Part shown: positions 6,713 through 52,835 of the stretch, one piece after another
How positions within the stretch are numbered: the first letter of the stretch is position 1
How the letters are laid out: each line of letters starts with the position of its first letter
Assembly: GCF_011745625.1 (NCBI RefSeq)
Contig: NW_027191470.1
Span: 124,001 to 188,000 of the forward strand
DNA length: 64,000 bases
Reading direction: 5' to 3'
Source of the DNA: Cladosporium halotolerans
Taxonomy: Eukaryota
Program-made: the position numbers and the translations under genes
Notes under the pieces: model-generated
The model's database searches: none
Told to the model about the DNA's origin: nothing
Seen by the model: the letters and a program-made list of their open reading frames with translations, nothing else

Positions 6713-8520
6713 TCAGACTGCAATCTCTTCGAGTTTCTCCAGGATCTGTGCGCTTTGTCAGCGATCGAAGCGCACCTTGTCGAATGGTGAGCGTCACGAA
6801 CATTCTGTATGTACTGCACTCCCATGACAACGCCATCGTCGTCATCCGAAAGAGCGTTAGACTGAGCAACCCCACTGCCCTTTTCCAGGCATGTCAGGCA
6901 CGCCAGCACTACCTCACAATACCGATCGCCCATGGAGTTGGGAAGTCTCTCAGAGGCAACCCCTGTCAGCACGCGCTTCAGCTCAAACGCCCGCTTCCTC
7001 TCGTCGCGCATCTGCGGCACCGCAGCGATTTCATGCAGTCCGGGCAGGATTGCCTCTTTGCCATCCGGCCCGATGGCGTACTGCACGAAGGAGGTCCAGA
7101 CCCCAATCTCGAGCAGGCATACTCCAAGGCTGTACACGTCGTGGTGCATGTTGTACATTTCTTCAGGTACCATGCCCTGCCGAGTTGGGTGACGGTAAAG
7201 ATTTTGATTCCATAAAGTGTCGCCGAGCATGTATGTATAGCCTGCTGCGGGGCGGAAGCGTGAGAAGCCAACGAGATAAGAGGCTCCAGAGTCGGTGGTG
7301 AGCACTATCTCGGGTCGGATGTTCTTGTGGACAAAAGATGCGCTGTGCAGAAAGATCACGGAGCGTGCAATGCTCCTTGCAATGATTAGTCGAGAGGTCA
7401 GCGATGGTGCAGAAGTCCGATTGAGAAGCAGGTCTCTAAGGGAGCGTGTGCTCGACTGGGCTATTTTAGCAAGCCGTTTCAGACGGTCCAGAGCATTTTG
7501 CTTACCACTGCCTTCGTTTCTTGTCCATCCTGAGGTGGTAGGATCCTCCCAGAAACGACACGCGCTGCTGGGGGCATTTGGAAGACCAGGGAAAATCCCA
7601 CCAGCGTTCCCTCGCTCATATTCTTCCTCACACCACTACATGCCAGCAAGCTGCATGTGATAGGATCTAGCTTGGAGAGCACTCTAGCAAGCTTCTGTAT
7701 ATCTCTGGACACTTCTGCCTCGCTCGTTCCCGGAGTGTATTGTACGTTGTCAAGTACGGCAAGCGCATGGTTGTCCGATCTGACTGACACCGTGGCTGTT
7801 GAGAAGCTCACGGGACTGGGCGAGCAGAACACCAAAGTCTCCGGTAAGAAGCCTATGAGATCGCACTGTGCGTCTTCATTTGCTCTTTTCGCATCACGAA
7901 GGTCTCCCAAGATATTTACGGGTTTGCGTCGAGCGCTGTCCTGTGACTTTTGTCGGCGGATTTCGACGTCGGCTTCCACGCCGGAGAGTCGAGCGATTAA
8001 GAACCAGGAAGGATCCCATCGTCTGTACCAGGTCTCTAAATCGTTGACCGATTTTTGAAGAGTCTCTTTGCGATAGAGTGCGTATGTCAGCTTCCTGCAG
8101 AAAGGTCAACCCCACATCACTGTGTCGACCGTCTCGCGAGAGCTTCAGCACCTTTCAAACGACGAAGACTTCGCGAACTTCTCGATGATCTTGATCAACT
8201 CCAAAAGCCTCATTTGCAATATCGCAAGCATTCGACTCTGGATATATTGATACTCGTCACCCAGGCTGGACGCTGTCCGGCGAAGGACCAACACTTGTCG
8301 CTCTATGCGGGCCCAGACAGCGCGAACGAGGAGCAATAGCTCTTGCACTTCCGTATCCGCATTTTTAAAGTCGTTGCAGATGGCGATAAGCGTCTTGCCA
8401 TATCTGGGGATCCTCCCGTATCAGCCTAACAATGATACTGGCCGATGATACTGGGGACACTTACTTTATACAAACGTCAATCGTCGAGACTACACCCAAA
8501 CCCACGCCTGCTGCCTCCAT
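6713..8520 (-). CDS. HeLo-like (prion-inhibition/propagation-type) N-terminal helical domain plus C-terminal pseudokinase; MLKL-like architecture, about 527 aa
   Basis: Five exons 8520-8465, 8403-8152, 8094-7506, 7455-6802, 6745-6713 join into a 1584-nt open frame; the intron 2 donor GTGCTG is weak. N-terminus MEAAGVGLGVVSTIDVCIKYGKTLIAICNDF...KLTYALYRKETLQKSVNDLETWYRRWDPSWFLI. C-terminal kinase-fold motifs FLHSASFVHKNIRPE, YLVGFSRFR, LYRHP and DVYSLGVCLLEIG. Confidence 0.8.
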
Positions 8521-8878
8521 GATTACCTGCAATCGGCCCTCAACGTCCGTACTATCCTTAGATATCTTCCTGCATGAGTGATGGCGGAAGGTTCTCATCG
8601 CAAGGAAATACACCGGAGCGTCGAGTGCGCGGGTGCTAGGCTGGGGCTGAGCATTTGGGCGCTTATGCACGAGGTGCATGGCACCGCCACACATGCATTA
8701 GCGAGCTCTAGCTGAAAGGCACTGCCATGAGGCGGTACAAGGTCACGAGAAGGACCATGTTTTGAATCAATCTTCGACTCGATGGACCTATGTCAGCTAC
8801 TCGATGCCCAATTCATGGCCCGACCGCCAACTTACTCGACCGACTTGTGATCAATTCTACGGATGATGCTCCTTCACT

Positions 8879-10874
8879 ATGGATGATATACTTGAGATCA
8901 CTAGGCTAAGAGAGACTTCAGTGAGTGCGACTGAAACCACACATCGCATTTATCAAGGGCAGGGCCATTGGCGCAGTGAAAGATGGGTCAGGTGTGAGAA
9001 TATAGGTCGGGGCGGCTACGGCACAATCTGGCGTGAGAAAGAGATGCAAAGCCAAAGTAAGCGTGCGTTGTGATAACTCGGTCCTATCATGCTAATGTAC
9101 AGTCCTCCAGAGTTCCGCGCGGTCAAGCGAGTACCGAAACATGCCGCGACCTGGGACTACAAAAAAGAGATCGCGGCGATGGCGAAATGTCGACAGTTCC
9201 CTCATCACTTTGCATATATGCATGGCTGGTATGAGGATGACGATTGCATATTCCTTGCCATTGACTGGTTCGAATTCGGGGACCTGTCACAGTGCGTCAA
9301 CGCTCAGATTCCTGAGGAGCAAGCGAAAGACATCACTGGACAGCTTTGTGCAGGACTTTCTGCAATACATCAAATGGGACTCACACACCGCGATTTGAAA
9401 CCCCAGAACGTGTTCGTGGTTGCTCGATGGCCGCCCTCTTGGAGTGTGAGGATTGGCGACTTTGGTATCAGCAAACGAGTTCAACAGAATGAGACTGCCC
9501 TGAGGACGATGACGGGAACACAAGCATACATGGCACCGGAAATATTCCCCTGGCTTATGGATGATGATGAGACACACGTTTACACCATGGCAGTTGACAT
9601 GTGGGCGCTTGGTGTCGTGATCTACCAACTGTTGACTTTTCAACTCCCATTTGGGGACCACAATCCACTGTACAGGTACTGCAAAAGTAGCAGCAGCTTT
9701 CCTGAAGCACCCTTACTTGACGCAAGGGTGACTACGCAAGGCATCAACATCGTCAAGTTACTCCTACAAAGTCATCCTGGGGACAGATTGACCTCCAGTG
9801 ACAGCTTGACACATCCATGGCTCTGCAAAGCGGTGTCTTTGCCTAGACAGGCAGGCAGTAACAAGATACAGTCAAATCTGGACAAGGCTCTCGAGTTGCG
9901 CAAATCGACTGATTCAACTCTGTCGAAGGCGGCCCAATTCGATCTGACTCCGCCCAGGATACTTGTTCCACACGCGGGAGGCGACGGGAGTGACCAAACG
10001 GCCTCGCACATGAGTGGCCACGGAGCAGGAGATGCTACATCCCAGCTGACAAACGCGATGATCGATACCCTCATGAGAGCTTCTGGTTATCTGTTACATG
10101 ATTCGACGTGGAGCGATGAATCAGCCTTGCAGTCTAATGAGCCCCTAGGTGTCGTGGAACACGGAGACTCCGAGGCGGTCAAGCTAACATCTCATAAAAT
10201 GGGGGGTCCCGAGCGCCCCAAGGTCGTCCAGAACAAGTACGACACTACCGTAAAGCATAATTACAGAGTAAGAGGTACGTTTAGCTCTCACTGCGATCCG
10301 CGCTATCCATCGCTCTGCTGATCATCACACAGTCATTGAAGTGAGCGGGTTGAAGTGTCCTGTACTACCAGGAACAAGCATTTGGAATCGCATTTTGAAC
10401 CATGACCGTACATCCGACGCAGACCTGCCGGGCATCTTCGTCCGGATCTTTGTCGGCCGCGAGCGCTTCGACACTCGAGCAATTAAGTGGAGGCGTCATC
10501 TAGAGTGGGACGAAAGTTTTGACTTGTATATTCCCGAGCCTCATTTCTGCAGAAAATGGATGCGCTGACGCCACCATCAAGGGCATTTTCTCGGAACGAG
10601 ACGCTCGCAGTCAGCATATGGGACGAGCGTAGTGCCAACAGTAAATTCTCTCGGGCCTTAGCAAGAGATTATATCATCACGAAGAAACTCATTGGTCTTC
10701 CAGTCGACGAAGAGAGTAAGTACGCCAACTGCAACACGTGGCTGCTTAGAACTAACTTTTCGAGAAATCATGGAGTATAAATTGCGACACTTTGAGGAGT
10801 CCGAGAAGGAAAAGGACCCAGCAACGCGCAAGTCAGAAATATCCATCCGACTTGGTTTCACGGCGAGACCGTGA
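8879..10874 (+). CDS. Ser/Thr protein kinase with C-terminal C2-like domain, about 592 aa
   Basis: Exons 8879-9056, 9111-10274, 10333-10525, 10582-10715, 10765-10874 (1779 nt, in frame; the last acceptor is a non-YAG and tentative). Complete catalytic set: GRGGYG, RAVK, HRDLKPQN, DFG, GTQAYMAPE, DMWALG. The tail YRVRVIEVSGL..FVRIFV..DTRAIK..WDESFDL..LAVSIWD has a C2 beta-strand pattern. Confidence 0.82.
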
Positions 10875-19186: not shown

Positions 19187-19512
19187 ATCACGGCGAGGTA
19201 TCCGAAGTAGTGTGCGCGAGGCGCGACCTTAAAGATGTCCCTCCCTTTAGCCCGTGCCTGGACTCGCGTAGGCATGTGACTTGAAGCTCCCTCTGGCGTG
19301 CAGCCAATCAGCGAGGGCTGGTATTGCTCTTCCAGCCGCTCAATCGGGCGGGCAAATGTGGGTCCCGCTCTCGCCCGCCGACTTTGGCGCGGGGCATCGA
19401 ATATCCTCCCACAATCTTCTCTACCACACGACACAATCTCCGAAAAACTCACTTCCCCAAGCACTTAGTCACCCCTCCACCACCACCCACAACCCAGCAA
19501 CACTCAGACAAA

Positions 19513-20235
19513 ATGGCCGAGCAGCCCAACGACGCCCAGGTGAGTCGCCCGCGAACACCGACTCCGACACACCTCGGCGCTGCGCCTCTGCATGCGCTGC
19601 GACCCTGGAGCATCGCCACGTACTAAACTGACCACCATCACTACAGCATGAGGTCTCCTTCGACAGCGCCGACGCCGGTGCGTCCGCGACCTTCCCGATG
19701 CAGTGCTCTGCTCTGAGGAAGAACGGTCACGTTGTCATCAAGGGCCGTCCCTGCAAGATTGTCGACATGTCCACCTCCAAGACCGGCAAGCACGGTCACG
19801 CCAAGGTCCACTTGACTGCCATCGACATCTTCACTGGCAAGAAGCTCGAGGATCTGTCCCCGTCCACCCACAACATGGACGTCCCGAACGTCTCCCGCCG
19901 CGAGTACCAGCTGGTAAGGAATACCCGAGCAGGAGCGAAAAAGCGGGGCAGATGACTGACTTCGCTTGCGCACAGCTCGACATCACCGACGACGACTTCC
20001 TTTCCCTCATGCACGACGACGGCTCCACCAAGGACGACGTCAAGGTCCCGTCCGGCGAGGTTGGTGACAAGATCAACAAGCTCTTCAAGGAGGAGGAGAA
20101 GGACACCAGTGCGTATCACCGGAGCCATTTGTCGAATGTACCTGTACTAACGCAATTCCAGACGTCATCATCCTCACTGCCATGGGCGAGGAGTGCGCCA
20201 TTGACGCCAAGGAGGCCCCCAAGGGCTCCGGTTAA
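19513..20235 (+). CDS. HYP2: Translation factor eIF5A
   Basis: Exons 19513-19539, 19647-19913, 19976-20108, 20162-20235 give 166 aa; hypusine motif [13 protein letters not shown]. Confidence 0.97.
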
Positions 20236-20589
20236 ATTTCTCCCGAATCGACTAGATGAGGGGTTTCTTGCAGCGCATGCAGTAGGCATACAATCAATAC
20301 CAAGCGCTGGCGCGATTAGCGGAATGTTACGACAGCATGGGCTGCGGCCGTCATGCGGACATGCGGGTTTATGAGTTATTGCAAAAGCGATAGCGCATTT
20401 GGCAAAAAACAGGAAAGCGATGTTGATTTTTTTCGAATTGGGACGCACCAGCATCCACGTATCTACGACAAGGAAATGATCTGACGTGCTCTCAATTTTT
20501 GATACTTTTCTCACTCAGTGATAAGTAACGACATAGTGACCATGCAGGCCAATATTGCGAAAGCGCGTTGTGTCAAAGGTGAATGCTAT

Positions 20590-20937: not shown

Positions 20938-22979
20938 ATGTCGTTGCGAGCTCACAAACGCCCTGAGCCCTGCGGCGAAGAAAACTGTGGTTCACGCAGA
21001 TTTCACGTCGGCGACGATGGCTACACATACTGCGACCGAGGTCACCAGCAATCACACGTAAGTGAAGCTGCCGAAACGCTGCCAATAAGGCTATGTTTTC
21101 CTTGCTGTCCATATTAAGGATCCCACTGACCACCCTCTCCAGCGCGGCACTGTCATCGCTGAAGACACAGGCGAGCTCGTCCAACTCGGCCGCAAACAAC
21201 GCCGCCGCGATTCGGACGCCGAATCGTCCGCGCGAAGTCGCTCGAGAGGCTTCACCGGCTCCAAAGCTCTCGAACATTACCTACTGGCCCTGCAGCTCGT
21301 GCTGAGGAAACAAGTCGCGTGGCTGGTGAGCGTCGCGAAACTCCCCGCGGAGCTCGAGGTGCGTTTTATGTCTTTCCTTCGTACTTCATCTCACCCCGAC
21401 CTCCTCAGCCTTACGAGCCAGAGCGCTTCAGCATGTCTTTGCGAAACGTCCGCTTGTGCCAGACACGCTCAGACGAAACGACGAGGGGGACGTTTGCTGT
21501 CTCTTGCAAGTACTATGTCTCGACGACTCACAGACACATTGATCGCGAGACCTCACAAGGCAAAAACATTGTACTGACGCTACTCCACCCCCCCCGCAGG
21601 CCATCACCCGCGACATCTGGGCCCTACGCCTGCGCCGCCTGCAAAGCCGCGTCTCCTACGACTCCGAAACCGACACCGAAGCGCCCTCGCAAGTCTTCAG
21701 CTCGCAGTCCGAGAACGAATCCGCCACCTCGCGCGGCGGCGGCAGCAGCACCATCGGCCGACGGCGCAAACGCCACGTCAAAACGGACGGCACCGTCAAC
21801 CTCGCCGAGACGCTGGCGGTGCTGCACGTGAGCGCCGCGCTGCTGCGCATCCCGCTGACAATCGCCGACATAGTCGACAAAATCGACACGGGCGAGCTGC
21901 TCTACTACTCCGCCGCGCGCGCCGTGCCCGCGACGCTGCTCGAGCGGCTGCCGCCCGAGTTCCAAGGCCTGCTGGAGCCGCAGCGGCAGCTGCGAGGAAG
22001 CGCGCTGCACAAGCGCGTGCTGGAGCTGGCGGCGCTGCTGGGCGGCGAGTTCGGGATGGAGGCGCCGCGCGCGAACGTGCCGCTGCTGCTGTACAGGTGG
22101 ATGGGGGAGCTGGCGCTGCCGCTCGAGGTGTATGCCGGGACGCGGCGGCTGGCGCGCGAGCTGGGGGCGGACTTCACGGTGCAGGTTCGGGAGGGGGGCG
22201 CGGGCTCGCCGGTGCTGCTGCGGTACCCTGAGGTGCAGCTGATGGCGTTGCTGGTCGTGGCGACGAAGCTGTTCTTTCCGCTGGACGATGTCGAGCGCCA
22301 TCCGACGTCGGCGCAGGACCTGTCCGCTCTACAGATGGACTGGGACGCTTGGGACGCCACACACAATGTCTCTTCTTCTTCCTCTACAGAGCAAGACAAT
22401 GCCGCACGCGGCGAGCTGCGCTTCAGCGAAGCTGCCGGCGTCACCGAGCCCGACTGCCTGACAATGGGCGAGGCGGAACTAGACCGATACCTAGACTGGT
22501 ACGAGACGAACCTCGCGAGCGAGAGCGTGCGCGAGCAAGGCCGAGCAGGCCGCGACGCCGACTTCCGGCGCACGCTGATGCGGCTGTTTCCCACTCAGCC
22601 CTCGTCTCGCGCTCCACCCGTCGAAGGCGAAGACAGCGTCGGAGGCGAAGACAGAAGTCTCGCGCGCTCGTCGGCGGACGAGGCGACACAGCGTCTCAGG
22701 CGAGTGCAACAAGCGCTGCGGCCGCGGGGGATTGTTGTCTCAGCGGGAGATGGAGCAGGCGGCGTCGAGCAAGGAAAAGTCGCGCGAGCGGGGAGTTTCT
22801 ACAGGCGGCATCGCGAGGCGGCGGACCTGGAAGGGCCGACGAGGACGCTTTATGCCAAAGCGGCGACGCTGGCGGGCGTGGCGCTGGAGGAGATGACGCG
22901 GGCGGTATTTCTAACAGAGAGGGGATTGCAGAAGCGCGAGCAGCGCGGCGCGAGGGAGGAGGACGCAGGGGAGGAATAG
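20938..22979 (+). CDS. RRN7: RNA polymerase I core factor subunit Rrn7 (TAF1B-like)
   Basis: Exons 20938-21057, 21143-21358, 21600-22979. N-terminal zinc ribbon CGEENCGS..DDGYTYCDRGH, then LQLVLRKQVAWL..LPAELE/AITRDIWALRL and PEVQLMALLVVATKL. Confidence 0.85.
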
Positions 22980-25180
22980 CGAGGGAGAGGGCGTTGAAAA
23001 ATTTGGGCTATGACAAAGCCCGACGAGGGCGATATTGAGACATAATGAAAATCACCACCTCGTTTCTGGCAGTGCTGTTGGGAGTGGAAGTTGGGCGAAC
23101 GGCCGCCGGCCGCTGACCGCTGGGATGCCGCGTGTATCGGAGAGTTTGCACAGGGCGAGATCAGCGCGGAGCGAACCCCTTCCCTGTTTAACGGTCGAGG
23201 GAAAGGCAGTTTGCGCGTCAGCACTCGTTCGCGTGAGGTGATGTTGTTGTTGTCAGCTGTCAGGACCGTTTCCGCCCAATTTCCAAACGCTCGGTGCCCG
23301 TTTAGCGCCAGATCTCGGAATCAAGCGGGCCCTGCCTATAGTAGGATCGCGATGCCTATATGAGCAGAGCAAGGGCTCTCCACGCAAGCGGGTGATGCCG
23401 GCATGGAGATGAACAGACGTCGAGAGAGTGAGCACTGTGTCTGATTACTCGATCCACCGTGCGAGGTGCGAATTGGAGGTGTCGCAGAGCGTGTCTTCGA
23501 GCGAGCGACGGTCGCGGGTGGGAAGAACGGAGGGTCGTCCGTTCCAACATCAAAACGCTGCCAACCGACAAAACACTTGAAGATACCTGATTGACTGTCA
23601 CCCCGCGGTGTGACCAGATTCATGCAGACGGGTGTCTGAAATGCGCCGGGCCGGCCATGAGGAGGCAGGGGGAGTGGCTCTCCTGAAAGGGACAGGTCGA
23701 TGCAGAGAGATGGCAGATCTGGTGGGCTGTCGCGCGGGCGGCGCTGGCACCGGTGGTGAGGTCCACCTCGTCGACCCGCCATTGGCCAGCTGCGCGGGCT
23801 CGCGGTGACTTTCGACGATCCCGTCGCGGCTCCAACAGTTTTGTGGGGTGGAGCATTCGGCGGTCGGTGATCCCCCAGACGTGCTCGCAACTCTCCTTTC
23901 CACTGCCGGCGGGTCGGCTAGTGCTGTTTTCGCTATCGCATCGTCCTGTCATGCTGAGGGCGCGTGCCCGCCTATATTGCTCGAGGCCGCTATAAGGGCA
24001 GCCAGCGCCGGCGCCTTATGCCCTGTTCGTTCGAGCCGCTGTGGCCCCGGCCACCCCTGCTCCCGTTCATGCACTGGTAGGCTACTGCCGGCACGCAGCT
24101 ACATGCTGGCGCTCCTGTGGCTAGAGAGCTGCGCGCCCTGGGTCGGGAGTCGGGGGCGCCTCCTGGAGTGGGGAGGAGAGCGGCGGTGTAGGCCTGATGT
24201 TGCGTTGATGCGACGTGCGGTGGAGAGGGCGAGGGCAGCGTGCTCCATTGCTCCCTCGAGGTGCATCGATGCGCGCGCGGAATACTGCGCGGCCAGACCG
24301 CCAGCAGGGCGCGCAGACTCTGCGTGCGCGCGTGCCCGGCCAAGATGCAATAGCGTCCCGAGCAGGCCGGCGACGGCATGCGAGGCCGAGTGCGATGCTA
24401 TCACGGGGCAGGGGAGCGTACGATCTCTTCACGGGCAGGCGAGGGTGTGCCAGGCCATCACGCCGCATATGTGGCATCGCCGACGGCAGCTGGGATGCGA
24501 CCCCTGCGTGTGCGGGCGCGGGCGCAGGCGATGAAGAGCGCGCGGCGGCGAGTGAGGGCAGAGGCGCAGGGTTGGCAGCGCGCAGGCGGCCCAGGGGAGT
24601 CGGTGGTGTGGCGCGCAGTGGTACCTGACGATCCGTGAGCCGTCGCAGGGCCGCATTTGCAACGCACAGCGCGCCGCCCGCCTGGCGATGCACGTCAGGA
24701 CTGCTGCTTCGGGGCGGCGCATCCTGGCCCATCTGGCATGCCGTGTTGCATCCGCCGCAGGTGCTGCCTCCATGCGGCCTCCGCGGGCTGCCCTCAGCCA
24801 CTTCGGGCGTTGCCAGCGGGCGCGCCAGAGCTTTGCGCGCGCGCGCCCGTACACCTGCCTACTGCGCTATACTGTTCGCCGTTGCTCGCCCGCGCGCACC
24901 CCAGCGCGCACAACCCCCATTGCCCGCCTCACTGACCTCGTCGTCGCCCTCATCGTCCGGGCTGCGTCGCGCCAGCCCGCTCGCCAGCCCTGTCGCCGCC
25001 TGCCCGCCCGTCCGCTCGCCTGTCCGCCTGCAGCAGCAAGGGATGGCCGTACGTCCTGTGTATCCTCCGGGCACCCCAATGGCGGCGGCGCTGCTCTCTT
25101 CGGGCGCCGTCCGTCCTGCCCAGGCGTGCCAGTCTCCCGCGGCTGAGAATGGCCGCACACAGGCTGCGCTCCGCGACATA

Positions 25181-25210
25181 GGTGGCCGTGGGTGGCCGTG
25201 GGTGGCCGTG
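25181..25210. repeat. Tandem 10-mer (GGTGGCCGTG)x3
   Basis: Three perfect copies read directly. Confidence 0.85.
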
Positions 25211-25890
25211 GGCGGCCCACACGCCCGTCCGCCCATTGCCCGCCGCCCGCAGCGCCTGCGACTCTGGGACGCCCATACCCACGCGCACGCGCGGTGAGCA
25301 TTGCGCTGAGATTGCGGCATCATCTTGCCGTTGCGCGTGTCCGGCGGTATGCGGGTGCGGTGGTAGACAGTTTAAGCTTCTTTTGGGCCGGCCAGAGTGG
25401 GGCTAAAAATAATGTCTCGCAATGGCCGCTATAGCGCATCATACAAGCCGGCTGCTATCGAAGTGGCTCGCTGCGATCGGCTCTACCCACCCAAGATCCT
25501 TCTCCCCAGGGCCCTGCGCACACGACGCACGGCGGCGGTGCCATGGGCAGAATGGGCTGGCGTCATGGAGCCAGTCAGCTGCCTTGCCTGCCTTGCCTGC
25601 CGTCCTGGCGTCCTGGCCCAGGGAGATGCAGTGGCCCAGTGGCCCCTCAGTCTGGTCTCCTCACTCATCGCTGGCTTTTCTGACTGTTCCCGTGTGTCGA
25701 ATACAGATCGACGGCTCGCCGTCATCCGTTTCATGGTCATATTGATTGCGCTTTCTATAGCGCAATTCCTCACGGCCGCCGCAACGGTTTCGCCTTCTGA
25801 TACACATATCTGACCTGACACCACTCCTGCTGGTTTCTTTCCACACCTGCATTCTTCTGGCGAGCCCTCGACGACTCCTCCGCCGTCGGC

Positions 25891-25908
25891 CAGTCAGTCA
25901 GTCAGTCA
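25891..25908. repeat. (CAGT)n microsatellite near the probable medA transcription start
   Basis: cagtcagtcagtcagtca read directly, after a pyrimidine-rich tract. Confidence 0.8.
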
Positions 25909-27239
25909 TTCACTCACCCCAGCCAGCCCATCCGGATCACTCTGAAACCGTACTCAGCATCTCGGATCCGCTCTCCTGGCTTCCATTCCAAGACCTATCC
26001 CACCCACCTGGATTGCACCCACACCGACGCGTCTAACCACAAGGTCAACATCGTTCGAGCACCGCTTTCAGCTCACCCCGCCTCCGGAAACACGACCTGC
26101 CTAATCGATTTCACCGCCCATCACGAATCCACATTGACACTTGTGGCTTCGGCAACCTGCACTTAATACCAGTCACCTGACGACGAAACACTTTCGCTTC
26201 TACCCTCCTGTTAGACCACGGTCATCAGGATAATCTAATCGCAATAGCCTAAACCGGCGTTAATACCAACCAACTTCCGTGCTCCAGCCCTTGCTGCGCT
26301 TGGACCTGTACCCTGTAAGTGTTCAATTGATGGTCATCCCGACGAAATCGATGCGCCCTTTCGCCTCGGGATGCTACACCCAGGCCGCTGGGACGGCGTT
26401 TCCCTCTCCATCCTGACCGCAGAGCTGGCCACCACCGCATTCGCCCAAGTGGCGACGGAGACTTTACCCATCGCGGACGTCGCTGACGAATGTTTAATGC
26501 CAGTCTCGCAACCCGCAACAATCACAGTCGCTACAGCCTTGTTTCTTTGATCTCGCGTGCGGAGTCGGCACCGGATACCCACAGTAGCCCAACACCAGCC
26601 CCTTGGGACGAACGACGGGAACAACCCTGCAATCTCCTGCGAACGCCTGCAATCGCCGCCAGAACTCCATACCAACCGCGCAGATCTCCTTTTTGCGCCC
26701 GGCAATTGGTGTGTGAAGAACGCCCCATTGACGACCGTAGCAAAGCAGACCTATTTGCGGGCTGCATGTCTCGAAGCGGATAAGTGCTTTGCTGCTTGGA
26801 CCACCCAGTTCGCCCAGCCTGCGCTTCCTTGCATCGAATTGAGTTGTAGTACGTCGCGCACCTATTCTGCGGCGTACATCTGTAGCAGACTGCCTCTGCT
26901 GCCCGTGTGATTGAACCCATCATTTGCCAAAAAGGCAGAAGACAGACGTATGCGTCACCAGGTGCGTGGAAACCCCTTTCGCCTTGCAACATTCCTTCCC
27001 GGCACGAGATGGTCTTGAAAGTGTCAGCGCGAGACTTCTCTTCCTGTGACTGCAACACCCACGCGACCGGCGAACACAATCACTGACAGGCGATCGTGCA
27101 GCTTTCCCAGCGTAGCCGCAAGTCACCGGTGATAGTTGATGAAGATTGCGGCATCCCCACCTCAGTGATCGACAGTTATCGAGAGGAGTACGACAGCGGG
27201 CCTCTTGGCCCAACGGACCCCAGGACGCTGCTGTTGTCG

Positions 27240-29575
27240 ATGTCGGATTACAAGCAGCCGCAGAGTTACGATGTGTACGGTAAGTTTGTTCCATACTTCT
27301 AGCGCTGCCAAATCGCGCATTCCGACGCTTCGCCGCCTGAGCTTGCGAAGCTCCTGCCTAGCGTCGCGCATGCGGGCACTGGGCATGTGAGAGGTCAATT
27401 GCGCAGATGACTGACCATGACGCATTCAGATTATAATGCAGCCACACGACCAGAACAGGCACAAGACTACGCTGGATTCGCAGCCAACCCAGCCTATGGG
27501 TCCGAGTATGTGGGTGCTCAGGCGCAGGTACCATCTGGTCTCCCGCAGTCAACAGGGCTGAACATGCTGCCGTCTGCACATCAAACGTACGGGACGCATG
27601 ACCCGACCTATTACAACCAGCAGCAGTCACAGTACCCTGCATATCTGGACTCCGAGGCTCGCCAACTCCCGGAGGTTATTTCCTACTCGCCGGCACAGGG
27701 ACAGCAAGGCACCAAAGTCACCGTCTACTTCAGGACCAACTACAACCTTGACAGCGCTCCTCAAGCCTCTCTCGTTATGATGTTCGGACAGAAGCGCTGC
27801 GACAGCGTTCTGTCCAAGACCTCCCACCAAGGTCCGCCTTACCAGTACGCCCTCACTGCGGATGCGCCTTCGCTCTCATCGACGAACTCTCCGTCTCCTC
27901 AGCTCCCTCTTCACATCATGTTCGAGGGCTCCGCGACCTGGCAATCGCCATCGCTCGAGTTCGGCAGCTTCTCGTTCCTCGACGAATACCCCATCGACTC
28001 GCCCACTCAGCAGCACGCATCTTCAACCCAGCGCAAGCGCAAGCTCACACCCGAGGCCGAGGAGCGCCGTTCGCCGACCAAGAAGCAGTCGTATGCGGCT
28101 CTTCCTCCTTCCACCGGCTCTGACTCCCACGCATACTACCCCAGTGCGCAGCCCGCGATTTCGGTGTCGACCGACTTCGCTCGCCCGACTATGGCTGATG
28201 CGTACTCGCAAGCCCGTCGTTTCTCCGTGCCGGAGCCTGTCTACGGTCAGAACATCTCGCGCGTCCAAGCACAGCAGCCTTACTACGGCGCTCAGCCTTC
28301 GTCTGCCGCTGCCAGGCTGCAGTCGACCCAGAGCCCGTCATACAACTACTACTCGTCGCTTCCCAACACCACCAGGTCGCCTTCCATGCAAGGTCTCTCT
28401 GCTGGAGGCAGATCCTCGATGCTTTCAGCGCCCGGCGGTGGCAGCAACCCGCCTCTGATCCGCACGTCGACCATCACGCAGTCGCCCACGACGCCTGGTG
28501 CCCAGTCGCAGTCTTTCAACCCGTACGCAATGTACCCCGCCAACACCAAGGCGATGCTGAAGATCGACGGCGACCTCAACACCATGGTCGACAACTGGAC
28601 GCCGGAGGAGTGGGACGTCAAGCGTCGCCTGGTGCAATTCAAGCGCAGTCAGGCGGGCAGTGTCATCACCACCACCTTCGAGCCGGTAAGCCCGGAAGAG
28701 CGCGCGCCCAACAGCATCTGCGTCAGCTGCATCTACTGGGCGGAGAAGGGTGAGTGTTACGTCACCAGCGTCGACACCATCCAGCTCCTGGAGGCCCTGG
28801 TGGCTGTGCGATTCACGGTCGAGGAGAAGAACCGCATCCGTCGCAACCTCGAGGGATTCCGCCCGGCGACCGTGTCCAAGGCGAAGCAGGACAGCGAGGA
28901 GTTCTTCAAGCTGATCATGGGCTTCCCCAACCCCAAGCCGCGCAACATTGAGAAGGACGTCAAGGTCTTCCCGTGGCGCATCCTCGCCACGGCCCTCAAG
29001 AAGATCATCGGCAAATATGCAAGTCATCCCGCTCCCACAGCTGCAGCCTCGTTGCAAGCGCTAACCAAGCCTCACAGTCCGCCAGCTACTCGTCCACCGC
29101 GAGCGCCATGCCTCAGCAGATGCAATCAGCTGCCGGCTACGCGCGCGGCTCCGACGCGGGCCTGCGCCAGATGGCCTCGCCACTCGCGACGACCGCGCCG
29201 TCCCACGCCTACGCATCAGCAATGACCACGCAGGCGTACGCGGGATCAGCAGGCTTCGGCCCGTCAGCAGGCCCACCCGACCTCCGCCTCACGGTGCCGG
29301 GCGGCTACCAGTCACAGTACGCCCCGTCGGACCTCAGCGCGGCGTCCAGCGCCGGACGCGGCAACTCGTGGGACTTTGGCACGTACATCAGCGCCTCGCC
29401 GGCCACCGGCCTGCCCGGATCGGCGCAGGCGACGCAGTACCAGTACGGGATCGGCGCGGGCCAGGCGTCGCAGCAGCGCGTGTCGACGCTGGCGGCGCAG
29501 TCGATGAACGAGGGCCGCTTCCTGCCCATGTACGCGCAGGCGGAGGGCAGTCAGCAGACGTCGTCGGGCGCGTAG
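27240..29575 (+). CDS. medA: Developmental regulator Medusa (MedA/ACON-3/Ren1 family)
   Basis: Exons 27240-27279, 27430-29018, 29078-29575 (the last intron is GC-AG). Conserved core WTPEEWDVKRRLVQF..CVSCIYW..CYVTSVDTIQLLE..FTVEEKNRIRRNLEGFRP.TVSKAK.DSEEFFKLIMGFPNPKPRNIEKDVKVFPW..LKKIIGKYSASYSST. A possible N-terminal extension starts at 26950 (see findings). Confidence 0.9.
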
Positions 29576-31163
29576 GGAAGGGCGACCACCCCCGCGGGAC
29601 GCCTGACTCGAACAAACAATCACAGCATGATGGTGTGCAGCCCTCCCAGAGCCGCAAGGCACGGTGGTGGGTAACGTCGAGGTCGGACTGGCGCGCACTG
29701 ATTGGGCACGGCATCGCCCGGGGCGCTGCAGGCCGCGCGCAAGACGGCGCGGCCTTCTTGATCCTGTGGCACACGCGCAGCAGAGCGGCAGCCCTCGATT
29801 CCATGTCCTGGGCGCCGCGGGCTGCAGCCTTGACTGCTGCTCGACCGTGTGCCCGCGGCCGCCGTGTCACCCGACCTGGCTGCGCAGCGGGTACATGGTG
29901 GATACAGCCATCAGTACTATAGTCGGGCGCGCGGTTGGACCCACGCCTGCGGCCCCGGAGATCGGCAAGGGCTTGCTTGCTTGCAGCTGGCGTCGCCGCC
30001 AGCCAATCCCGCCGCGCGCCCGGCGTTTGCTGCGCCCGTCACGCTACTCGATCGACGACCGCCCGCATGCACACACAACATCGACGAAACACGCCCCCTT
30101 CGACAGACACACGCACATCGTTCTACCTCATACACGGACAACGGAAACGGAAACGGACACGGGCACCGCATCACACTTCGCATTCCGGCGCGCTATACCC
30201 CATGCTTGCTTGCTTTTTGGCTTTCTCTCTTTCTCTTAAAGGCATCTAATCACTTCTCGTCGCTTTTATCTCTTATCGCTCGCAGTCGATCGTCGTCGTC
30301 GTCGACTCTTGCAGCTTCTTTCAACACAACAACACAACTTAATGTATGAATCACCACGAGACCGGCTCTTTTCCGTCGAAGCACACAATCGACGACCAAA
30401 GATGCGCCCTCACTCAACAAACCAACCAACCAACCTTCCATTCTTCTCATCGGATTTTCTTCACACTTTCGTTTCCGCTCGAACTCTCCCACGCTGGAGC
30501 ATCGAAGCATAATCTAATCACCGACATCTTTTCTTTCTCTTCTATTTCTTTTCGTTTCTGTCGGACAGCTATTCTCGTTTTTTTTTTTTGCTGGCTTTTG
30601 CTTTGCTGTACGATATGATACCCAGGACTCACACAAACCAAGCCGCCCGAAGGTCAAAGGGGGAGAAAGACGGATGGATGGATGGGTGCATGGATGGATT
30701 GACGGAAAGGGCGGCTTACACGAACATACAAATCACTTTTTCTTCTTCAACAATCGAAATTACTTCAATCTGTTAGATCTTCCCAGCTCGTGAGTCGCTG
30801 TCACGTTGTGTGCGTTTGTTTTTGGATTTGAGTGCGAGCAGTGTTGGTGTTCGCGTTGCCTTCGTTGCTTGCCTGCACTTTTTCAACGCCGCGCGCGACT
30901 CGTTCGGCCGTTCAGTTCATTATACTTAGAGCTTCATGTCATAATACCTGAAGGATAGATCGCCTTCCAGACCTGACCGAATCCTCTGTACATCCACATC
31001 TTCCGTCTCGTCTTCTCCTCCAGATACCAAATTCGTCACTTGACTGGCAAGATCGTTCCCCATTGTCACGAAAGAAAAACGATATCTCTCCCAACGTGTA
31101 AGCCGGCCGCATATCGCTTGTGTGAAGAGATGAAGTAGCTAGTGCTGGTGGCGGCATCTTGGT

Positions 31164-40240: not shown

Positions 40241-42922
40241 TCAATACCTAAACTGACTCCCCTGCCTCACCTCCCTCGGCACAACCTCCCGCCCATACTC
40301 ATCCAGATACCTCACAGCCGGCTGCTGCGGAACAGGAGCATAGCTCGGCGCACGCTGCTGGTACGCCGGCGCTCCATACTCAGGCGCAGGCATGACGCTC
40401 ATGGCGCGAGGCGGCGGCGGGGCCTCGTGGCGGACATACTGGACGGGCGCAACGCTCGCTTGCCGCGGCGCGTAAGTGAACTGCGGCGGGTCTTGGGCGT
40501 CGGGGCGGACGCTGTAGGCTCGGGACGGGGCCGCGTAGACGGGCGAGGTTGTTTCGTGCGGGACGGATGGTGGTGGCATTGGCTCGTAGTGAGATTCGCG
40601 GGGAGCCGGGCGCGCGGACGGGGGAGGCATGTGGTCGTATTGCGGTGGTTGTTGGTAAACTGGGGAGGTCGGGGCGTGGGAGTAGCGGATTGGTTCGGCT
40701 GGGCGTGTACTATACTCTCGGACGCGGTAGCCGTTGGAGTCGAGATGCTCTACGGCTTGCTCAGGTGGTGCATGCCTTCTTGCTGGCGGTGGTCCCATGG
40801 CAGACTCGACTGGTTCATAAGGCGCCGCCTGAGGAGGTAAGGTGTACGATCCTGGCATCCTGCTAGACGCACGTTCGTATCCGAGTTCGGGCTCCCCATG
40901 TCGACCAAGTGGCGCCACAGATGCTCTCGTATGCATGGATGGTTCAGCCGCATAGTATTTGTTGCCGTACTGGTCAACGACAACGCGCCGCGGAGCTGGA
41001 GGCGGAGGCATCATAGTTGGACTGGATTCTCTGTACTCCTGCAGGCGGACAGGCTCGTGTTGTGGTTCGGTAGGCAGATAGCGCACCGTCGAAGCCTCCT
41101 GGCCGTATCCAGTATCTGGAGCATAGGGTGCTACTGATGCTTGACGTTCCGTGTATGCTCTTCCGTTAGACGAGTAAGCGGCAGCAGGTGAGTACACCCG
41201 CTGAGCAGGAGAAACAGGACGCTGTGCGTAGTGTAGGCTGGCAACACGACGTAGATCCTGGGTGTCCCTTTGAGCGGGACGGTAGCCGCTTGCTGAACTG
41301 ACACGCACAGCGGTAGGTGGCGGCATTGAAGGCGCATACTCGTATCGTGGAGAGGAAGCGTACACGTATTGGGGCTGGGGAATGTTGCGTGGAGGCTCCG
41401 GATCGAGCTGTATTGGAGCCGCTGGGTTTGTGTACCTGTACGGGTACGGCTGTACTTCTGGCACGTTGGTGAAAGGTGGCGGAGAAAGCGGCTCCGGTTT
41501 GATATAGGGCTCCTTGTAGATGGGCGATACGGGAGACTGTGCGTTCTGTCTCTCTTGACGCTTTTTCGATCGATTTGACGCCTCCAGCTCTCGCTTTCGC
41601 TTCTTGTTCTTCTTCTTTCTGGATCCTGGTCCGGTACCCGGCCCTGGAGGCGAAGCTGACGAAGGTCGAGATTGAACCTGAGCGTAGCGTTTCTGCGGTT
41701 TGTGCACAACCTCCGGACATCCATTCACCAACTCCAGCTCAATGCTCGGCCCCTTCTGAACAGCGAGTGGTGAGACGCGATTCGGCTGGGGGGCTGCGAT
41801 GGTACTGAGGTGATTGCGATATATAGGCACTTGGGGCGAGGGTTGTGCACTGGGCTGGTTGTTCGTATAGGGCGTCACCACAACGCTGTCCTGGGTGACC
41901 TCACCGGGTTCGTACTCGGAATCGTCATCTTCGTCGGCGCCCATATCACGCACGTCCATTGTGGTGTCGGCGTCGTAGAAACTGTCAAAAGCCGCAGGAT
42001 CGGGCGGCGAATACTCCTCATCTTCATCATCAGCCTCATTGACACCGTCTGTCTCGTGGGTAAAGATATTAGGACGATTTTTGGACGCGGAAGAAACGTC
42101 TGCACGATGGAAGGTGCCATGTGCTTGAACGGGCTGCTTGCCACGCGCCTTTGAAGATGCCGCAGCGACACCATTACGATGATCGAGAGTTTCGACATCG
42201 GCAGGGAAAGCACCTACAGCTTGATCGGAGCCGTTACGGGATGCGACATCTGACGACCATTCGCTCTGCACTTGGCTTGAATAATAGTCGTTCTCATCAA
42301 ACGAAGTCGCAGCACTTCCAGCCCGGTATGCGGCCCTGAGTCCTGAAATTGGCTTCACTCGCCGCTGAGCATCCGCCAACGCGGCATCGATGCTAATGTT
42401 CGACGGGCCTTCAGGAGCGCCCTCTTTATCACGACCGGACAACTGTTTCCGTTTTTCCCAGCTGTCAAATAAATCGTGCTCGATCCGCTGGCGCTTCAGC
42501 TGTCCCTCTGCTCTTACAAGGCTATCCGACTTTTCCAAAAAGATAGGGTCGAGTCCAGCAGACGCGGGCTTTGCGTGGTATTGCTGTGTCGGAGGGATAC
42601 TCGAACCGAGCCCAGGGAGACCTGGATACATCATCGTGGGCGGAGCTGCTGCGTTAGCACTAGACGGTAAGCCGTTTGTGAGAGCATTGCTCGTCTCCCT
42701 AGGAGGCTCAGCATGCTGGCTGGCATTCTTTGGAGACTGTGGAACATGAAGCGAGGCCTTGAGTGCTTCTATCGCCGCAGCCGGCAGCTTGAGCGTGGGA
42801 TGCCTTCCTTCGACCACCGCATCTCGAAGATCCAAGACCTTCGTGTAGAAGTCGTCTTCCTCTTCCAGCGTAGGCGGGACCGAGTGATGGCCATGCGCAG
42901 GCGCGTGTGCATCTAGTGCCAT
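40241..42922 (-). CDS. Hypothetical protein, disordered, with Pro/Tyr-rich C-terminus and basic NLS-like segment
   Basis: About 890-codon single ORF from ATG 42922. Domain-like islands FYTKVLDLRDAVVEGRHPTLKL, LDPIFLEKSDSLVRAE, HLSTIAAPQPNRVSPLA and IKPEPLSPPPF; RKKKNKKRKR; repeated D-x-Y/N-G-(N/R) motifs. Confidence 0.8.
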   Translation of the reverse strand: MALDAHAPAHGHHSVPPTLEEEDDFYTKVLDLRDAVVEGRHPTLKLPAAAIEALKASLHVPQSPKNASQHAEPPRETSNALTNGLPSSANAAAPPTMMYPGLPGLGSSIPPTQQYHAKPASAGLDPIFLEKSDSLVRAEGQLKRQRIEHDLFDSWEKRKQLSGRDKEGAPEGPSNISIDAALADAQRRVKPISGLRAAYRAGSAATSFDENDYYSSQVQSEWSSDVASRNGSDQAVGAFPADVETLDHRNGVAAASSKARGKQPVQAHGTFHRADVSSASKNRPNIFTHETDGVNEADDEDEEYSPPDPAAFDSFYDADTTMDVRDMGADEDDDSEYEPGEVTQDSVVVTPYTNNQPSAQPSPQVPIYRNHLSTIAAPQPNRVSPLAVQKGPSIELELVNGCPEVVHKPQKRYAQVQSRPSSASPPGPGTGPGSRKKKNKKRKRELEASNRSKKRQERQNAQSPVSPIYKEPYIKPEPLSPPPFTNVPEVQPYPYRYTNPAAPIQLDPEPPRNIPQPQYVYASSPRYEYAPSMPPPTAVRVSSASGYRPAQRDTQDLRRVASLHYAQRPVSPAQRVYSPAAAYSSNGRAYTERQASVAPYAPDTGYGQEASTVRYLPTEPQHEPVRLQEYRESSPTMMPPPPAPRRVVVDQYGNKYYAAEPSMHTRASVAPLGRHGEPELGYERASSRMPGSYTLPPQAAPYEPVESAMGPPPARRHAPPEQAVEHLDSNGYRVREYSTRPAEPIRYSHAPTSPVYQQPPQYDHMPPPSARPAPRESHYEPMPPPSVPHETTSPVYAAPSRAYSVRPDAQDPPQFTYAPRQASVAPVQYVRHEAPPPPRAMSVMPAPEYGAPAYQQRAPSYAPVPQQPAVRYLDEYGREVVPREVRQGSQFRY

Positions 42923-43288
42923 CGTAGCCTGCGGCACCACGCGTAGAATGTTGTAAACCACCACTGGACGCGCTCACCTTCGACGGCAGCGAAAGCGCGT
43001 GCGTTAGAAGATCGCCGTGCAGCAGATGGGCGGATGGAAGTTCGAGTCTCCGATTCTGGGTTGTGGCGGCGCTGCAAAGGGAGCGCCAGCGCTGGGCGAG
43101 CCCGAGGGCGCGGGCCCCTGCGTCCAGCGAATCGGCAGCGTCAGCGTTGAGTCGAGGATTCGCGGGCGTTCGTGAATGGATACAGTCACCGGGCCATGAA
43201 CCACTCATCATATATGAAGCGTCTTGCTACAAGCCCCCGTTTCTTTCGCCCTCCAGCATTTTCCTATAGACGTTCATTTTCAGTCACG

Positions 43289-47780: not shown

Positions 47781-48274
47781 GCCAGCTGCGAGACCTGCGC
47801 GTGGATACGGCGTTGGACGAGCGTGCAGACGAAACGATTCATATTTGGGGAAATATAAAATAATAACGTCCCCGGCAACAAGACAGTAATTGCACAGCAA
47901 AATCAGAGACACGCTCCCGGGGTTGTGAAGAGGCCGCAGAGGAGGCTGAGGCGGGAGCGACAGGGCGAGCATTGGCCATCGCGCGCTTCCTTAGCCCGAC
48001 GCGAGCTCAGGAACGCACTGCACGCTTTTACTCCATGGCCGCCGTCCTTCGACCTCCCACACCCACACAGTCCCTCCTTCGTCTGTCCTCGTGTCCGGTC
48101 ATGTCCTCCGCCTACTAACGCCATTGATCAGACCGCCTGCTCGCCAGAAGCAGCTGCATATCACCCGCTGCGAGCCAGACACGTGCCCAGCCGCGTCGTG
48201 CTGTCCTGCCGCACGTAGCAACCACTCTACGCGGCACCTGGCCTTGCCTCGCGTCCTGAACGCCCACACCCACC

Positions 48275-49864
48275 ATGGAAGGCTCGCCCTTTCGTGGCAG
48301 GCCAGTCGTCAAGTCGACAGAGGCCGCTGATGCACCTTCTCGTCGCCCTTCCCTCCTGCCCGCGTTCGAGCCGCTGTCGTCCTCTCCCGGCCTCCCTCGG
48401 CCGATGAAACGCAAGTTCGACGACTTGGTGGAAGCAAGAAAGTTCTATCCTACTCCCATACCTACATCATCCACCGGTATACTCGCGTCGTCCTCGCCTG
48501 CGCGTCAGACGCGTCCTGGCCTCCAGCGGACCGTCTCCACTCTCTCTGAACGCGCTCCTTTGGGAGACGTGCCTACACTTCACATCCCCTACAATGGCGA
48601 GCCCGTCTTGATGGGACGATCGAGCAACTCTTCAGACTACCAACTCCCCGGCAACCGTCACGTATCTCGCGTCCATGTACGCGCGTCGTACATCGCTGCC
48701 GACTCTTCATACCCGGCGGGTAAGGTGGAGGTGGAATGCTTGGGATGGAATGGCGCGACCGTCCACTGCCGCGGCCAGGTAACAGACTTGGCCAAGGGCG
48801 AACTCTTCTCATCGGACAAGCCGCACGCTCAAATCATGGTCGACGTGCAAAGCACGCGTATCATGCTCACGTGGCCGAAAGAGGCATTGGAGCCGGGCTC
48901 CAGCCACTCCAGGTCTTCGTGGCTGGAGGAGTCTCCGACAAAGCGATCTCGTAGCGACGAGAACGTCAACCTCGCTTCCAGCCCGCCCGCGATGCTGTCT
49001 TCGCGTCAGTACACGCCTCCTTCACCAACACCGAACAACGCGGCCAACAGCTTCGAGGCGACTTTCCACGAAGACGTCTCCAAAAGCCCAGTCAGAGTCT
49101 ACGAGGATCACAGCTCGGATGAGGATGCTGTTGGCGAGTACGATACGCCCGTGCCTAGCAGTGACCCTGACCAGACCATCCTCCAAATCGGCAATGAAGA
49201 CACTCCGAAGGCTCAACTGAGCCACAGCACGGAGAACGAGGAGCTGTCGGAGCACGATGAAGAGAACGATCCCATCGTGCACTCGTTCGGTCCTTTCGGT
49301 GACAACCTTCTCTCCAAATTCGAAACCTTCAAGCCGGCGTCTCCCGAGCGTGCGCGCAAGCCTCTGGGCTCCACCACTAGCTCACCCATGAAGGCTAAAC
49401 CGACAGCCGCGCCCATCCCGCAAATCGACCTGGCTCCTGTCAAAAACCACGTCATCAACCAGCTCGCATATTCTCGCATCCACTCTCTTCCCCTGTCCAT
49501 CATCCACAGCAACCTCCCTGCCGAGCTTCGCGGCACCAAGTCGAAGAAGTCGGGCACTCCAGACAAGCCGGTCGTCTCTACCGCCAACCTGAAAGCCATC
49601 ATCGATGACATTTCCTGCGTTGGCGAGATCAAGCGCGAGGGCAAGGATGCTGCAGGCAAACTGCTCGAGAGCGAGTTCTACTACATGCCAGAAATGGACA
49701 GCGACGAAATGCGTCGCGAGACGGTCACCCAGAGCCTGGGCAAGACCAGCATGCGCGCTGCGCGTAAGCAACACAAGGTATGTGCACTGCAGTGCTCTTG
49801 ACATAATACACCCCCATACTGACCGTCATTCCAGCAATACTACTGGAAGAAGCCGCGTGTCTGA
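48275..49864 (+). CDS. TOS4: FHA-domain protein Tos4/Plm2
   Basis: YPTPIPTSSTG, FHA GRSSNSSD..HVSRVH..GWNG, NHVINQLAYSR, GEIKREGKDAAGKLLESEFYY and RAARKQHK/QYYWKKP (intron 49778-49834). Confidence 0.88.
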
Positions 49865-51975: not shown

Positions 51976-52835
51976 TCATCCCCTCTCAGCCTCCCCAGCC
52001 AAAGGCGAAGCCCCCCTGCCATTCTTGCCATGCCCGTGAGGACTCATGTCCGAGATCTGCCGCTCTGCATAGAAAGTCAGCCAAGCGAAACTCAAAGTAT
52101 GGAGTGTAGAAATAGAGGAGAAATACAACGGAAAGAATACGTACCCAGTTCCCTAACCCTACACCTCAACATCTGGTTCTCCCTCGTAAGCGTCTGCGTC
52201 TCCGCCTGGTAATAGAAAGCCGGGTCGTCGCGCGCCACCACGCCCGGAGAACTCCCAGAAGGCAGCAGGACGAACTCCTCCGCGCCCAAGGCCGGCGGCG
52301 AAGCCGGGCGTTGCTGAGCAGGGCTGTTGGTCGCCGTCGAGGAGGTCGTCAGCGCCGAGGACGAGTGGCGCGAGAGCGGAGGCCGTTCGGCGGAGGGTTG
52401 GCGCTGGCTTTGGGCGGCCTGCAGCTTCAGCGCGGCCAGCTGCTCTTGCTGTAAGCGGATCATGTGCAGGAGGCGGTTGACCTGGCCTTCGGTTTCGGCT
52501 TCGAGGTCTTGGTGCAGGGCGCCGAGGCTGGGTTGGCGGGTGTGGTGGTGGGGTGGGTAGGAGGAGGGTTGGAATTCGCCGGGGGAGGGGAGGGTGGGGT
52601 CGTTGAGGGCGAGGTTGGCGGCGAGGCTGCTGCGGCGGCGCGCGAGGGTGACGGGGGGTGAGCGGTGGTGTAGGCTGGCGTTGAGGGTTGCGGCTGCTTG
52701 GAGGGAGGAGAGGGAGGGGGAGCGCGGGGAGGGAGAGGTGGGGATGGGGTGGGTGGTGTCGATTGAGATGCGACGGGGGCGCGGTGGGCGGGATGGTGGG
52801 GTCGAGGGGGTCATGGTGTCTATGTCGGGCGACAT
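51976..52835 (-). CDS. Hypothetical protein with two short coiled-coil segments
   Basis: Exons 52835-52145 and 52064-51976. SPSLSSLQAAATLNA, QPSLGALHQDLEAETEGQVNRLLHMIR and FYYQAETQTLTRENQMLRCRVREL/ERQ look like conserved blocks within low-complexity sequence. Confidence 0.75.

Follow-up and report, generated by a model that had tools for sequence, protein, structure and literature searches.

In a window of 64,000 nucleotides from Cladosporium halotolerans (contig NW_027191470.1, positions 124,001 to 188,000; all coordinates below count from the first letter of this window), two genes, here called A and B, are transcribed away from each other. Gene A combines a predicted helical bundle with a degenerate kinase domain, gene B encodes an active-type kinase, and our work shows that the pairing of the two is conserved; this is a solid result, and the pairing is apparently undescribed. 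Gene A covers 6713..8520 on the reverse strand, with five exons (8520-8465, 8403-8152, 8094-7506, 7455-6802 and 6745-6713) for 527 amino acids, and gene B covers 8879..10874 on the forward strand, also with five exons (8879-9056, 9111-10274, 10333-10525, 10582-10715 and 10765-10874), for 592 amino acids. The 358 nt between the two divergent ATG codons (8521..8878) presumably act as a shared promoter. The gene models come from a six-frame translation of the window and canonical splice sites: Both spliced frames are open, all eight introns are 49-61 nt long and have GT..AG borders, and the model of gene A agrees from end to end with full-length relatives, i. e. at the N-terminus, in the C-terminal motif and at the junction of the kinase lobes. 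The sequence-only reading of this locus had described two intact spliced genes with ATGs at 8520 and 8879, a gap of 358 nt and outer ends at 6713 and 10874, and the rebuilt models match it in all of these points.

Contigs from run X12, which is recorded as RNA-Seq, skip the introns 8404-8464, 8095-8151 and 6746-6801 of gene A as well as the introns 10526-10581 and 10716-10764 of gene B exactly at the predicted borders. Five of the eight introns are thus supported by RNA-Seq contigs (three of four in A, two of four in B), and we can conclude that both genes are transcribed. The intron 7456-7505 of gene A and the introns 9057-9110 and 10275-10332 of gene B lie outside the RNA contig coverage and are based on the reading frame and on agreement with homologues. 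The contigs of three other runs, which are probably DNA, have no joints at the introns of A and B. They diverge from the window by a few percent over both genes and carry small intergenic indels: These are confined to the shared intergenic region (at 8553, 8722 and 8784; 3 nt and 13 nt are omitted and GTC is inserted), and no indels are listed for the coding parts.

Gene B is, by its sequence, a catalytically intact serine/threonine kinase of the CAMK type. The catalytic domain (8987..9823, forward strand, including the intron 9057-9110) has the complete set of motifs, GRGGYG, AVK, HRDLKPQN, DFG and APE, and exon 2, which is 95% identical to P0121, matches Pfam Pkinase (PF00069) with an E value of 1e-41 and 143 bits against a cut-off of 31.7. 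The full set of catalytic kinase motifs claimed earlier for gene B was thus found again, in contrast to the RIPK3-like identity that had been proposed for it: The nearest solved kinases are Rad53 (E 5e-35), CaMKII, Chk2 and phosphorylase kinase, all of the CAMK type, no RIP kinase is among the best 60 solved-structure matches, and the RHIM-like core [IV]Q[IVLF]G was found neither in the spliced A nor in the spliced B protein. Since gene B is of the CAMK type and has no RHIM-like core, its likeness to RIPK3 is a matter of analogy and not of homology.

The C-terminal half of gene A (about amino acids 191-527; 6713..7832, reverse strand, including the introns 7456-7505 and 6746-6801) is, to judge from its motifs, a kinase fold without the catalytic residues. 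Its C-terminal exon matches Pfam PK_Tyr_Ser-Thr (E 7e-6) and weakly DUF7580, the A-family profile matches TKL kinases such as B-Raf, LIMK and IRAK4, and the proteins of the family give DUF7580 (PF24476) together with weak kinase matches in Pfam. In gene A, HKNIRPE takes the place of HRDxKxxN, GFS (GFE in the family) that of DFG and RHP that of APE, and a GxGxxG glycine loop is not present. The catalytic degeneration that had been read from this one gene is kept across the gene A family in the form of HKN, GFE and RHP, and since the loss holds family-wide we regard gene A as encoding a pseudokinase. The activation segment has a Thr, replaced by Ser in one row, in all 43 of 43 aligned family members.

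The N-terminal part of gene A (about amino acids 1-190; 7833..8520, reverse strand, including the introns 8404-8464 and 8095-8151) is predicted to form a HeLo-type bundle followed by brace-like helices. The fold tests for this part and for the whole protein were run on relatives, which stand in for the spliced protein of the window. For the first 200 residues of the relative P0013, the nearest entries by ESM Atlas features are clusters with PF14479 HeLo (0.94, 187 of 256 features), and in a sister cluster of the A family Pfam HeLo is found in 32% of the members. An AlphaFold2 model of the first 200 amino acids of a relative, with a mean predicted local distance difference test score (pLDDT) of 79, has four long helices and, after them, two that are shorter; the predicted brace-like helices, two to three in number, are 145-157 and 164-177 in this model and lie in 146-188 in the full-length model. 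When the full-length model of the A relative from Fonsecaea erecta (pLDDT 78.5) was searched with Foldseek, the top match was MLKL 4btf (E 3.7e-8), with an alignment that runs across both domains; the next matches are RIPK2, LIMK2, IRAK4 and further TKL kinases. The sequence profiles see less of this. The N-terminus of the modelled relative L025 matches Pfam HeLo (PF14479) with E 0.087 and 13.1 bits against a cut-off of 23.2, Pfam HeLo has no match at E ≤0.1 in ten full-length relatives of gene A, and the single exons of the gene A N-terminus have no Pfam match. Among 57 A-family members, the commonest non-kinase matches below threshold are MLKL_N (four, best E 0.0021) and PigL_N (four). An N-terminal profile of the family finds no MLKL or HET-s among PDB chains; its six matches at E ≤10 are unrelated coiled coils. 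Since the HeLo score remains below the cut-off, gene A is a distant relative rather than a member of Pfam HeLo. The models point to an MLKL-like layout of gene A, in which the HeLo-type bundle is assigned with moderate confidence; at this strength the HeLo or helical-bundle fold proposed before for the N-terminus can be retained, based on the Atlas features, the predicted bundle with its brace-like helices and the first rank of MLKL.

The tail of gene B (10333..10874, forward strand, exons 3-5) comprises 145 amino acids and is plausibly a divergent C2-like domain. The closest full-length kinase models, P0244, P0245 and P0246, two of them from Cladosporium, share 61-64% kinase-domain identity with B and carry WW and C2 (PF00168), and P0272 of Exophiala bonariae, with 42% kinase-domain identity, carries ANK, WW and C2. 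In local phmmer and blastp alignments the spliced tail aligns with the PF00168 C2 regions of just these four proteins (9-26 bits), whereas Pfam finds nothing at E ≤1 when the exons of the tail are searched one by one. This combination makes the label C2-like plausible: The earlier assignment stands as far as the weak alignment to four related kinases carries it, and it finds no backing from Pfam on the single exons. In a tblastn search of the tail with its linker against 80 related loci there was no match, and a phmmer search of tail exon 3 against 1.84 billion representative proteins returned only an open-reading-frame fragment of 87 amino acids and two low-complexity matches.

The gene pair recurs in other genomes. 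Metagenome contigs were scanned with the A-family alignment, which gave 80 A-like loci in 53 clusters at ≥90% identity; the six-frame open reading frames of these loci were searched with profiles of the A family and of B relatives, and the matches were merged into genes. Of these clusters, 35 were taken as informative because their A gene is complete at the 5' end and has 1 kb or more of upstream sequence, and the 18 that fall short of this were dropped. An active-type kinase gene on the opposite strand lies within 1.5 kb of the A-like gene in 21 of the 35 clusters, the same head-to-head arrangement is seen at 2.5 kb in one cluster, in three the adjacent kinase is oriented differently, and ten have no neighbouring kinase. 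Even among the dropped clusters a head-to-head kinase is seen in L061, L074 and L080 and a downstream kinase in L031 and L062. As the background, 241,553 bp of sequence at distances above 3.5 kb from A contain three kinase genes, and at this density chance would fill about one of 35 upstream slots. In 19 of the 21 head-to-head pairs the gap between the first profile matches is 394-865 nt, in the other two it is 1242 and 1435 nt. The kinases tabulated in head-to-head position have DFG- and APE-type matches in 23 of 23 cases and an HRDxK match in 22 of 23.

The same picture emerges from named species. The two families are large, with at least 1541 A-like proteins (E ≤0.001) and at least 838 B-like kinases (E ≤1e-30). 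Among the matches listed, ten of 34 NCBI-named A-like proteins have a B-clade kinase one or two locus tags away (nine consecutive, one two away), namely those of Pleopsidium flavum, Cladophialophora chaetospira, Exophiala bonariae, Leptodophora sp., Endocarpon pusillum, Rhinocladiella mackenziei, Geoglossum umbratile, Trichoglossum hirsutum, Aspergillus nanangensis and Fonsecaea erecta. Both members of all ten pairs are on contigs of equal size, and equal size is also found for three more NCBI-named pairs and for two others. For the remaining named species with an A-like protein, no kinase of theirs is among the matches listed (120 of at least 838); in Aspergillus mulundensis, one listed kinase sits on a different contig from the A-like gene. 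A-like genes thus adjoin active-type kinases far above chance, and the sequence-only reading survives the refuting condition that it had set for linkage. Compact fungal genomes have many divergent gene pairs, and the adjacency might be a coincidence of two unrelated genes with a shared bidirectional promoter. A pairing found in 21 of 35 informative clusters and in ten named species, always with one kinase clade and with correlated trees, refutes such a coincidence for practical purposes, and we give it next to no credence.

A FastTree phylogeny of 142 kinase domains places the 30 kinases of the loci, gene B of the window and 40 database kinases in one clade of 71 rows with a Shimodaira-Hasegawa (SH)-like support of 97, separate from CDPK-like, phosphorylase-kinase-like and bacterial kinases. 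Across 29 pairs, the distances between the A genes and those between the partner kinases are correlated (Mantel r 0.83, reached in 0 of 2000 permutations), a value that may partly reflect shared species history, and in 17 of the 29 pairs one and the same other locus supplies both the nearest A and the nearest kinase. The A-like genes and the kinases of the B clade co-diversify. The C-terminal domains of the clade kinases are variable and include WW, WD40, ANK, C2, ULD_2, KA1, RicinB lectin, Drf_GBD/FH3 and TPR. At L016:79-1020 (reverse strand), an open reading frame with pentapeptide repeats is found just past the WD40 part of the kinase of this pair. Some loci have more than one kinase of the clade: A second open reading frame stands in tandem near the pair at L023:5228-6007 (reverse strand), and two further kinases lie downstream of the pair in L020-L022 (L020:12710-13651 and 19361-20274, forward strand).

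What might such a pair do? In our view it is somewhat more probable than its opposite that the pair in the window represents a two-gene module which is conserved in the Pezizomycotina and works as a kinase-triggered, MLKL-like switch for a necroptosis-like death or immune response. In this reading, gene B belongs to a clade of kinases that almost always adjoin an A-like gene and whose C-terminal interaction domains are interchangeable, with the divergent C2-like domain in the case of the window. The C-terminal domain of gene B would sense a cue or localise to it, the kinase would then phosphorylate the pseudokinase domain of gene A, for which the invariant Thr of the activation segment is the obvious candidate site, and the HeLo bundle, once released, would act on membranes and lead to necroptosis-like cell death or an immune response. 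Since the enzyme of the presumed activator is a kinase and the regulatory domain of the presumed executor is a pseudokinase, phosphorylation-gated release of the bundle is the simplest reading. We infer the binding of A and B, the phosphorylation with its direction and sign, the attack on membranes and the death. A single complex prediction for the kinase and pseudokinase domains of the intron-free pair of L029, run without supplied alignments or controls, gave a score of 0.00, which counts neither for nor against an interaction.

Kinase-pseudokinase pairs with scaffold or allosteric roles are known, and the two genes may form a signalling pair that does not kill, with the pseudokinase as a membrane-anchored scaffold or allosteric partner and the bundle serving localisation or oligomerisation only. 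Linkage and co-diversification suit any functional partnership, and the pair is surrounded by housekeeping genes; neither an NLR nor any further death gene was seen in the window. The bundle fold is not specific for killers, either. In a wide structural search with the N-terminal model of an A relative, the N-terminal domain of MLKL (6ux8) is found with a Z score of 10.9, a root mean square deviation of 2.6 and 117 aligned residues, AtMLKL3 (6ka4) with a Z score of 7.9; the same search lists the coiled-coil domain of potato Rx and the CC-R domain of NRG1. CBL, IncA and the plant coiled-coil domains score similarly to MLKL. The HeLo domain of HET-s is not among the best 50 matches of this search. 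Three lines of evidence argue for a killer nevertheless: First, by its Atlas features the A-family N-terminus is nearest to HeLo clusters. Second, the whole-protein model of an A relative is closest to MLKL. Finally, the variable repeat or sensor tails of the partner kinases resemble those of the activators in fungal death clusters, which are described in a 2025 review (PMC12881547). Taken together, we consider a non-killing pair unlikely, at perhaps one chance in several.

The idea of a kinase-triggered death switch has to face several findings that weigh against it. CBL and IncA outscore MLKL against the N-terminal model, unrelated bundles reach Z scores of 11-13, and the search tool itself cautions that for helical bundles Z scores below about 13 are unspecific, a range that includes the values of 10-11 obtained with the A relative. 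In Foldseek, the N-terminal model has no PDB match below E 0.1, with MLKL 6d74 in seventh place, and every single Pfam match to HeLo, MLKL_N or PigL_N in the A family stays under the cut-off. The kinase is of a type unrelated to RIPK3, and the correlation between the two sets of distances is open to the contribution of species history mentioned above. The kinase tree was made with FastTree alone, gave long-branch warnings and had no named fungal CAMKs as outgroups. The metagenome contigs may contain mis-assemblies. Finally, the ten of 35 informative clusters that lack a neighbouring kinase include a whole subfamily (L033, L048, L056 and L063). The kinase is thus not obligatory, and the clusters without it indicate that there are other activators or else that the kinase modulates the response and does not trigger it.

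The clusters without a kinase also bear on the sign of the regulation. The kinase might be a guard or brake that constitutively phosphorylates A and keeps it inactive, so that loss or inhibition of the kinase, e. g. by a pathogen or an antagonist, would free the executioner. The linkage data fit this model equally well, and the invariant Thr or Ser of the activation segment could just as well be an inhibitory site. However, A genes without a kinase are common (ten of 35 clusters), and under a pure brake model one would expect these genes to be toxic, provided that there is no other brake; we regard this model as rather improbable.

Several details of the loci without a kinase are worth recording. 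The A subfamily of L025, L033, L048, L056 and L063 has an N-terminal signature of its own, and wherever the flanks are long, no kinase adjoins its A genes. Among the Pfam matches of the neighbours of the ten kinase-less A loci, no common alternative partner was found. At L014:5775-6392 (forward strand), an open reading frame just downstream of a kinase-less A gene contains ULD_2 (PF22893), a domain that also ends the Fonsecaea partner kinase (C-terminus of P0142); this hints at a second kind of partner.

The proposed death switch resembles the animal RIPK3-MLKL system in outline, and on the side of the kinase the resemblance would be one of analogy. As in MLKL, the executor A appears to consist of a helical bundle, brace-like helices and a dead kinase fold, with MLKL 4btf as the top match of a relative, and the proposed activator is an active kinase that would act through the activation segment of the pseudokinase. 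Unlike RIPK3, the fungal kinase is of the CAMK type, not of the TKL/RIPK type, and has no RHIM-like core; moreover, the fungal genes are physically paired, and the kinase has swappable C-terminal domains. The plant MLKLs (e. g. AtMLKL3 and wheat Pm13) likewise have, outside animals, the HeLo or four-helix bundle with brace and pseudokinase that is predicted for A, with the structural match to AtMLKL3 given above. In contrast to them, the fungal A family has degenerate motifs of its own (HKN, GFE and RHP), and the plant proteins are not known to have the gene of an upstream kinase paired with their own.

In its architecture the pair seems to be built like other two-gene death clusters of fungi, with a new kind of activator. 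The 2025 review describes a fungal pattern in which an executor gene lies beside an activator with a variable sensor domain, realised in the HeLo/NLR and gasdermin/protease clusters (PMC12881547). Two features of such clusters are found here, the recurrent adjacency of the presumed executor and activator and the variable sensor or repeat domain on the latter. In HET-S/NWD2 and HELLP/PNT1 of filamentous ascomycetes, according to the same review, a protein with a HeLo-type N-terminus is likewise encoded beside its presumed activator (PMC12881547); in contrast to these, the neighbour of A is a kinase and not an NLR, and the executor ends in a pseudokinase and not in an amyloid prion-forming motif, with the motif search limited to the RHIM core. 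In the fungal gasdermin-protease clusters, again as the review presents them, a membrane-attacking executor is combined with its activating enzyme, to which WD40, ANK or TPR repeats are often fused (PMC12881547), and in many relatives the partner kinases carry WD40, ANK or TPR as well. Here the enzyme is a kinase instead of a protease and the fold of the executor differs; activation would thus be a reversible phosphorylation rather than a cleavage.

How much of this is new? One sentence in the review mentions a HELL domain with a kinase/pseudokinase architecture and gives no function or partner (PMC12881547), so that only the pairing with a dedicated kinase appears to be undescribed. A description of a dedicated kinase gene paired with a HeLo-pseudokinase was not found in full-text searches of the literature, which do not extend to subscription-only papers, and a full-text search found no mention of DUF7580. 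Within the reach of these searches, the supposition that no characterised example of the pairing exists can be kept for the pairing with the kinase, whereas the architecture of the executor had already been mentioned (PMC12881547).

Fungal HeLo proteins act in heterokaryon incompatibility, as stated in the review (PMC12881547), and the two genes may be an allorecognition locus at which death occurs when incompatible kinase and executor alleles meet after hyphal fusion. This would fit with the presence or absence of the kinase beside nearly identical A genes: The A genes at L023:8870-11610 and L024:8617-11375 are 95% identical, the upstream kinase of L023 is missing in L024, and the DNA upstream in L024 matches regions that lie downstream in L023, which may reflect a structural polymorphism with loss of the kinase or else a mis-assembly. 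This possible mis-assembly of L024 speaks against an allorecognition locus, as do the contigs of the three other runs with their few percent of divergence over both genes and their small intergenic indels, and we judge an allorecognition function to be very improbable.

If the two genes are indeed a kinase-triggered death switch, the implications reach beyond a single locus. The fungal HeLo executors known so far are triggered by amyloids templated by NLRs, and fungal gasdermins are triggered by proteases. A HeLo-pseudokinase triggered by a kinase would, if true, be a third activation logic for fungal death executors, and the step that defines animal necroptosis, in which a kinase acts on a helical bundle gated by a pseudokinase, would enter the fungi via an unrelated kinase. 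The module would thus bear on the question whether necroptosis-like signalling is ancient or convergent. In addition, the pairing suggests a function for the proteins with Pfam DUF7580 as well as for the many fungal kinases of a large and unstudied clade. It is tempting to speculate that the pairs form a widespread third class of Pezizomycotina death or immune clusters, in which sensor kinases of the CAMK type with swappable receptor domains (WW, C2, ankyrin, WD40, TPR, lectin or ubiquitin-like) would phosphorylate the invariant Thr of a HeLo-pseudokinase executioner and thereby switch it on, as a necroptosis-like pathway of an origin independent of RIPK3; we offer this wider idea tentatively and place it a little on the doubtful side.

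The flanks of the pair in the window are ordinary: The pair lies between a mannitol dehydrogenase and a helicase, and farther out come tannase, Vps52, Rrn7 and others. No Pfam match at E 1e-5 is seen for three long open reading frames of the window (40244-42973, 48260-49798 and 54668-57766). In the stretches 22000-30000 and 52000-58000 the G+C content is raised to 0.62-0.67, compared with about 0.52-0.56 elsewhere in the window.

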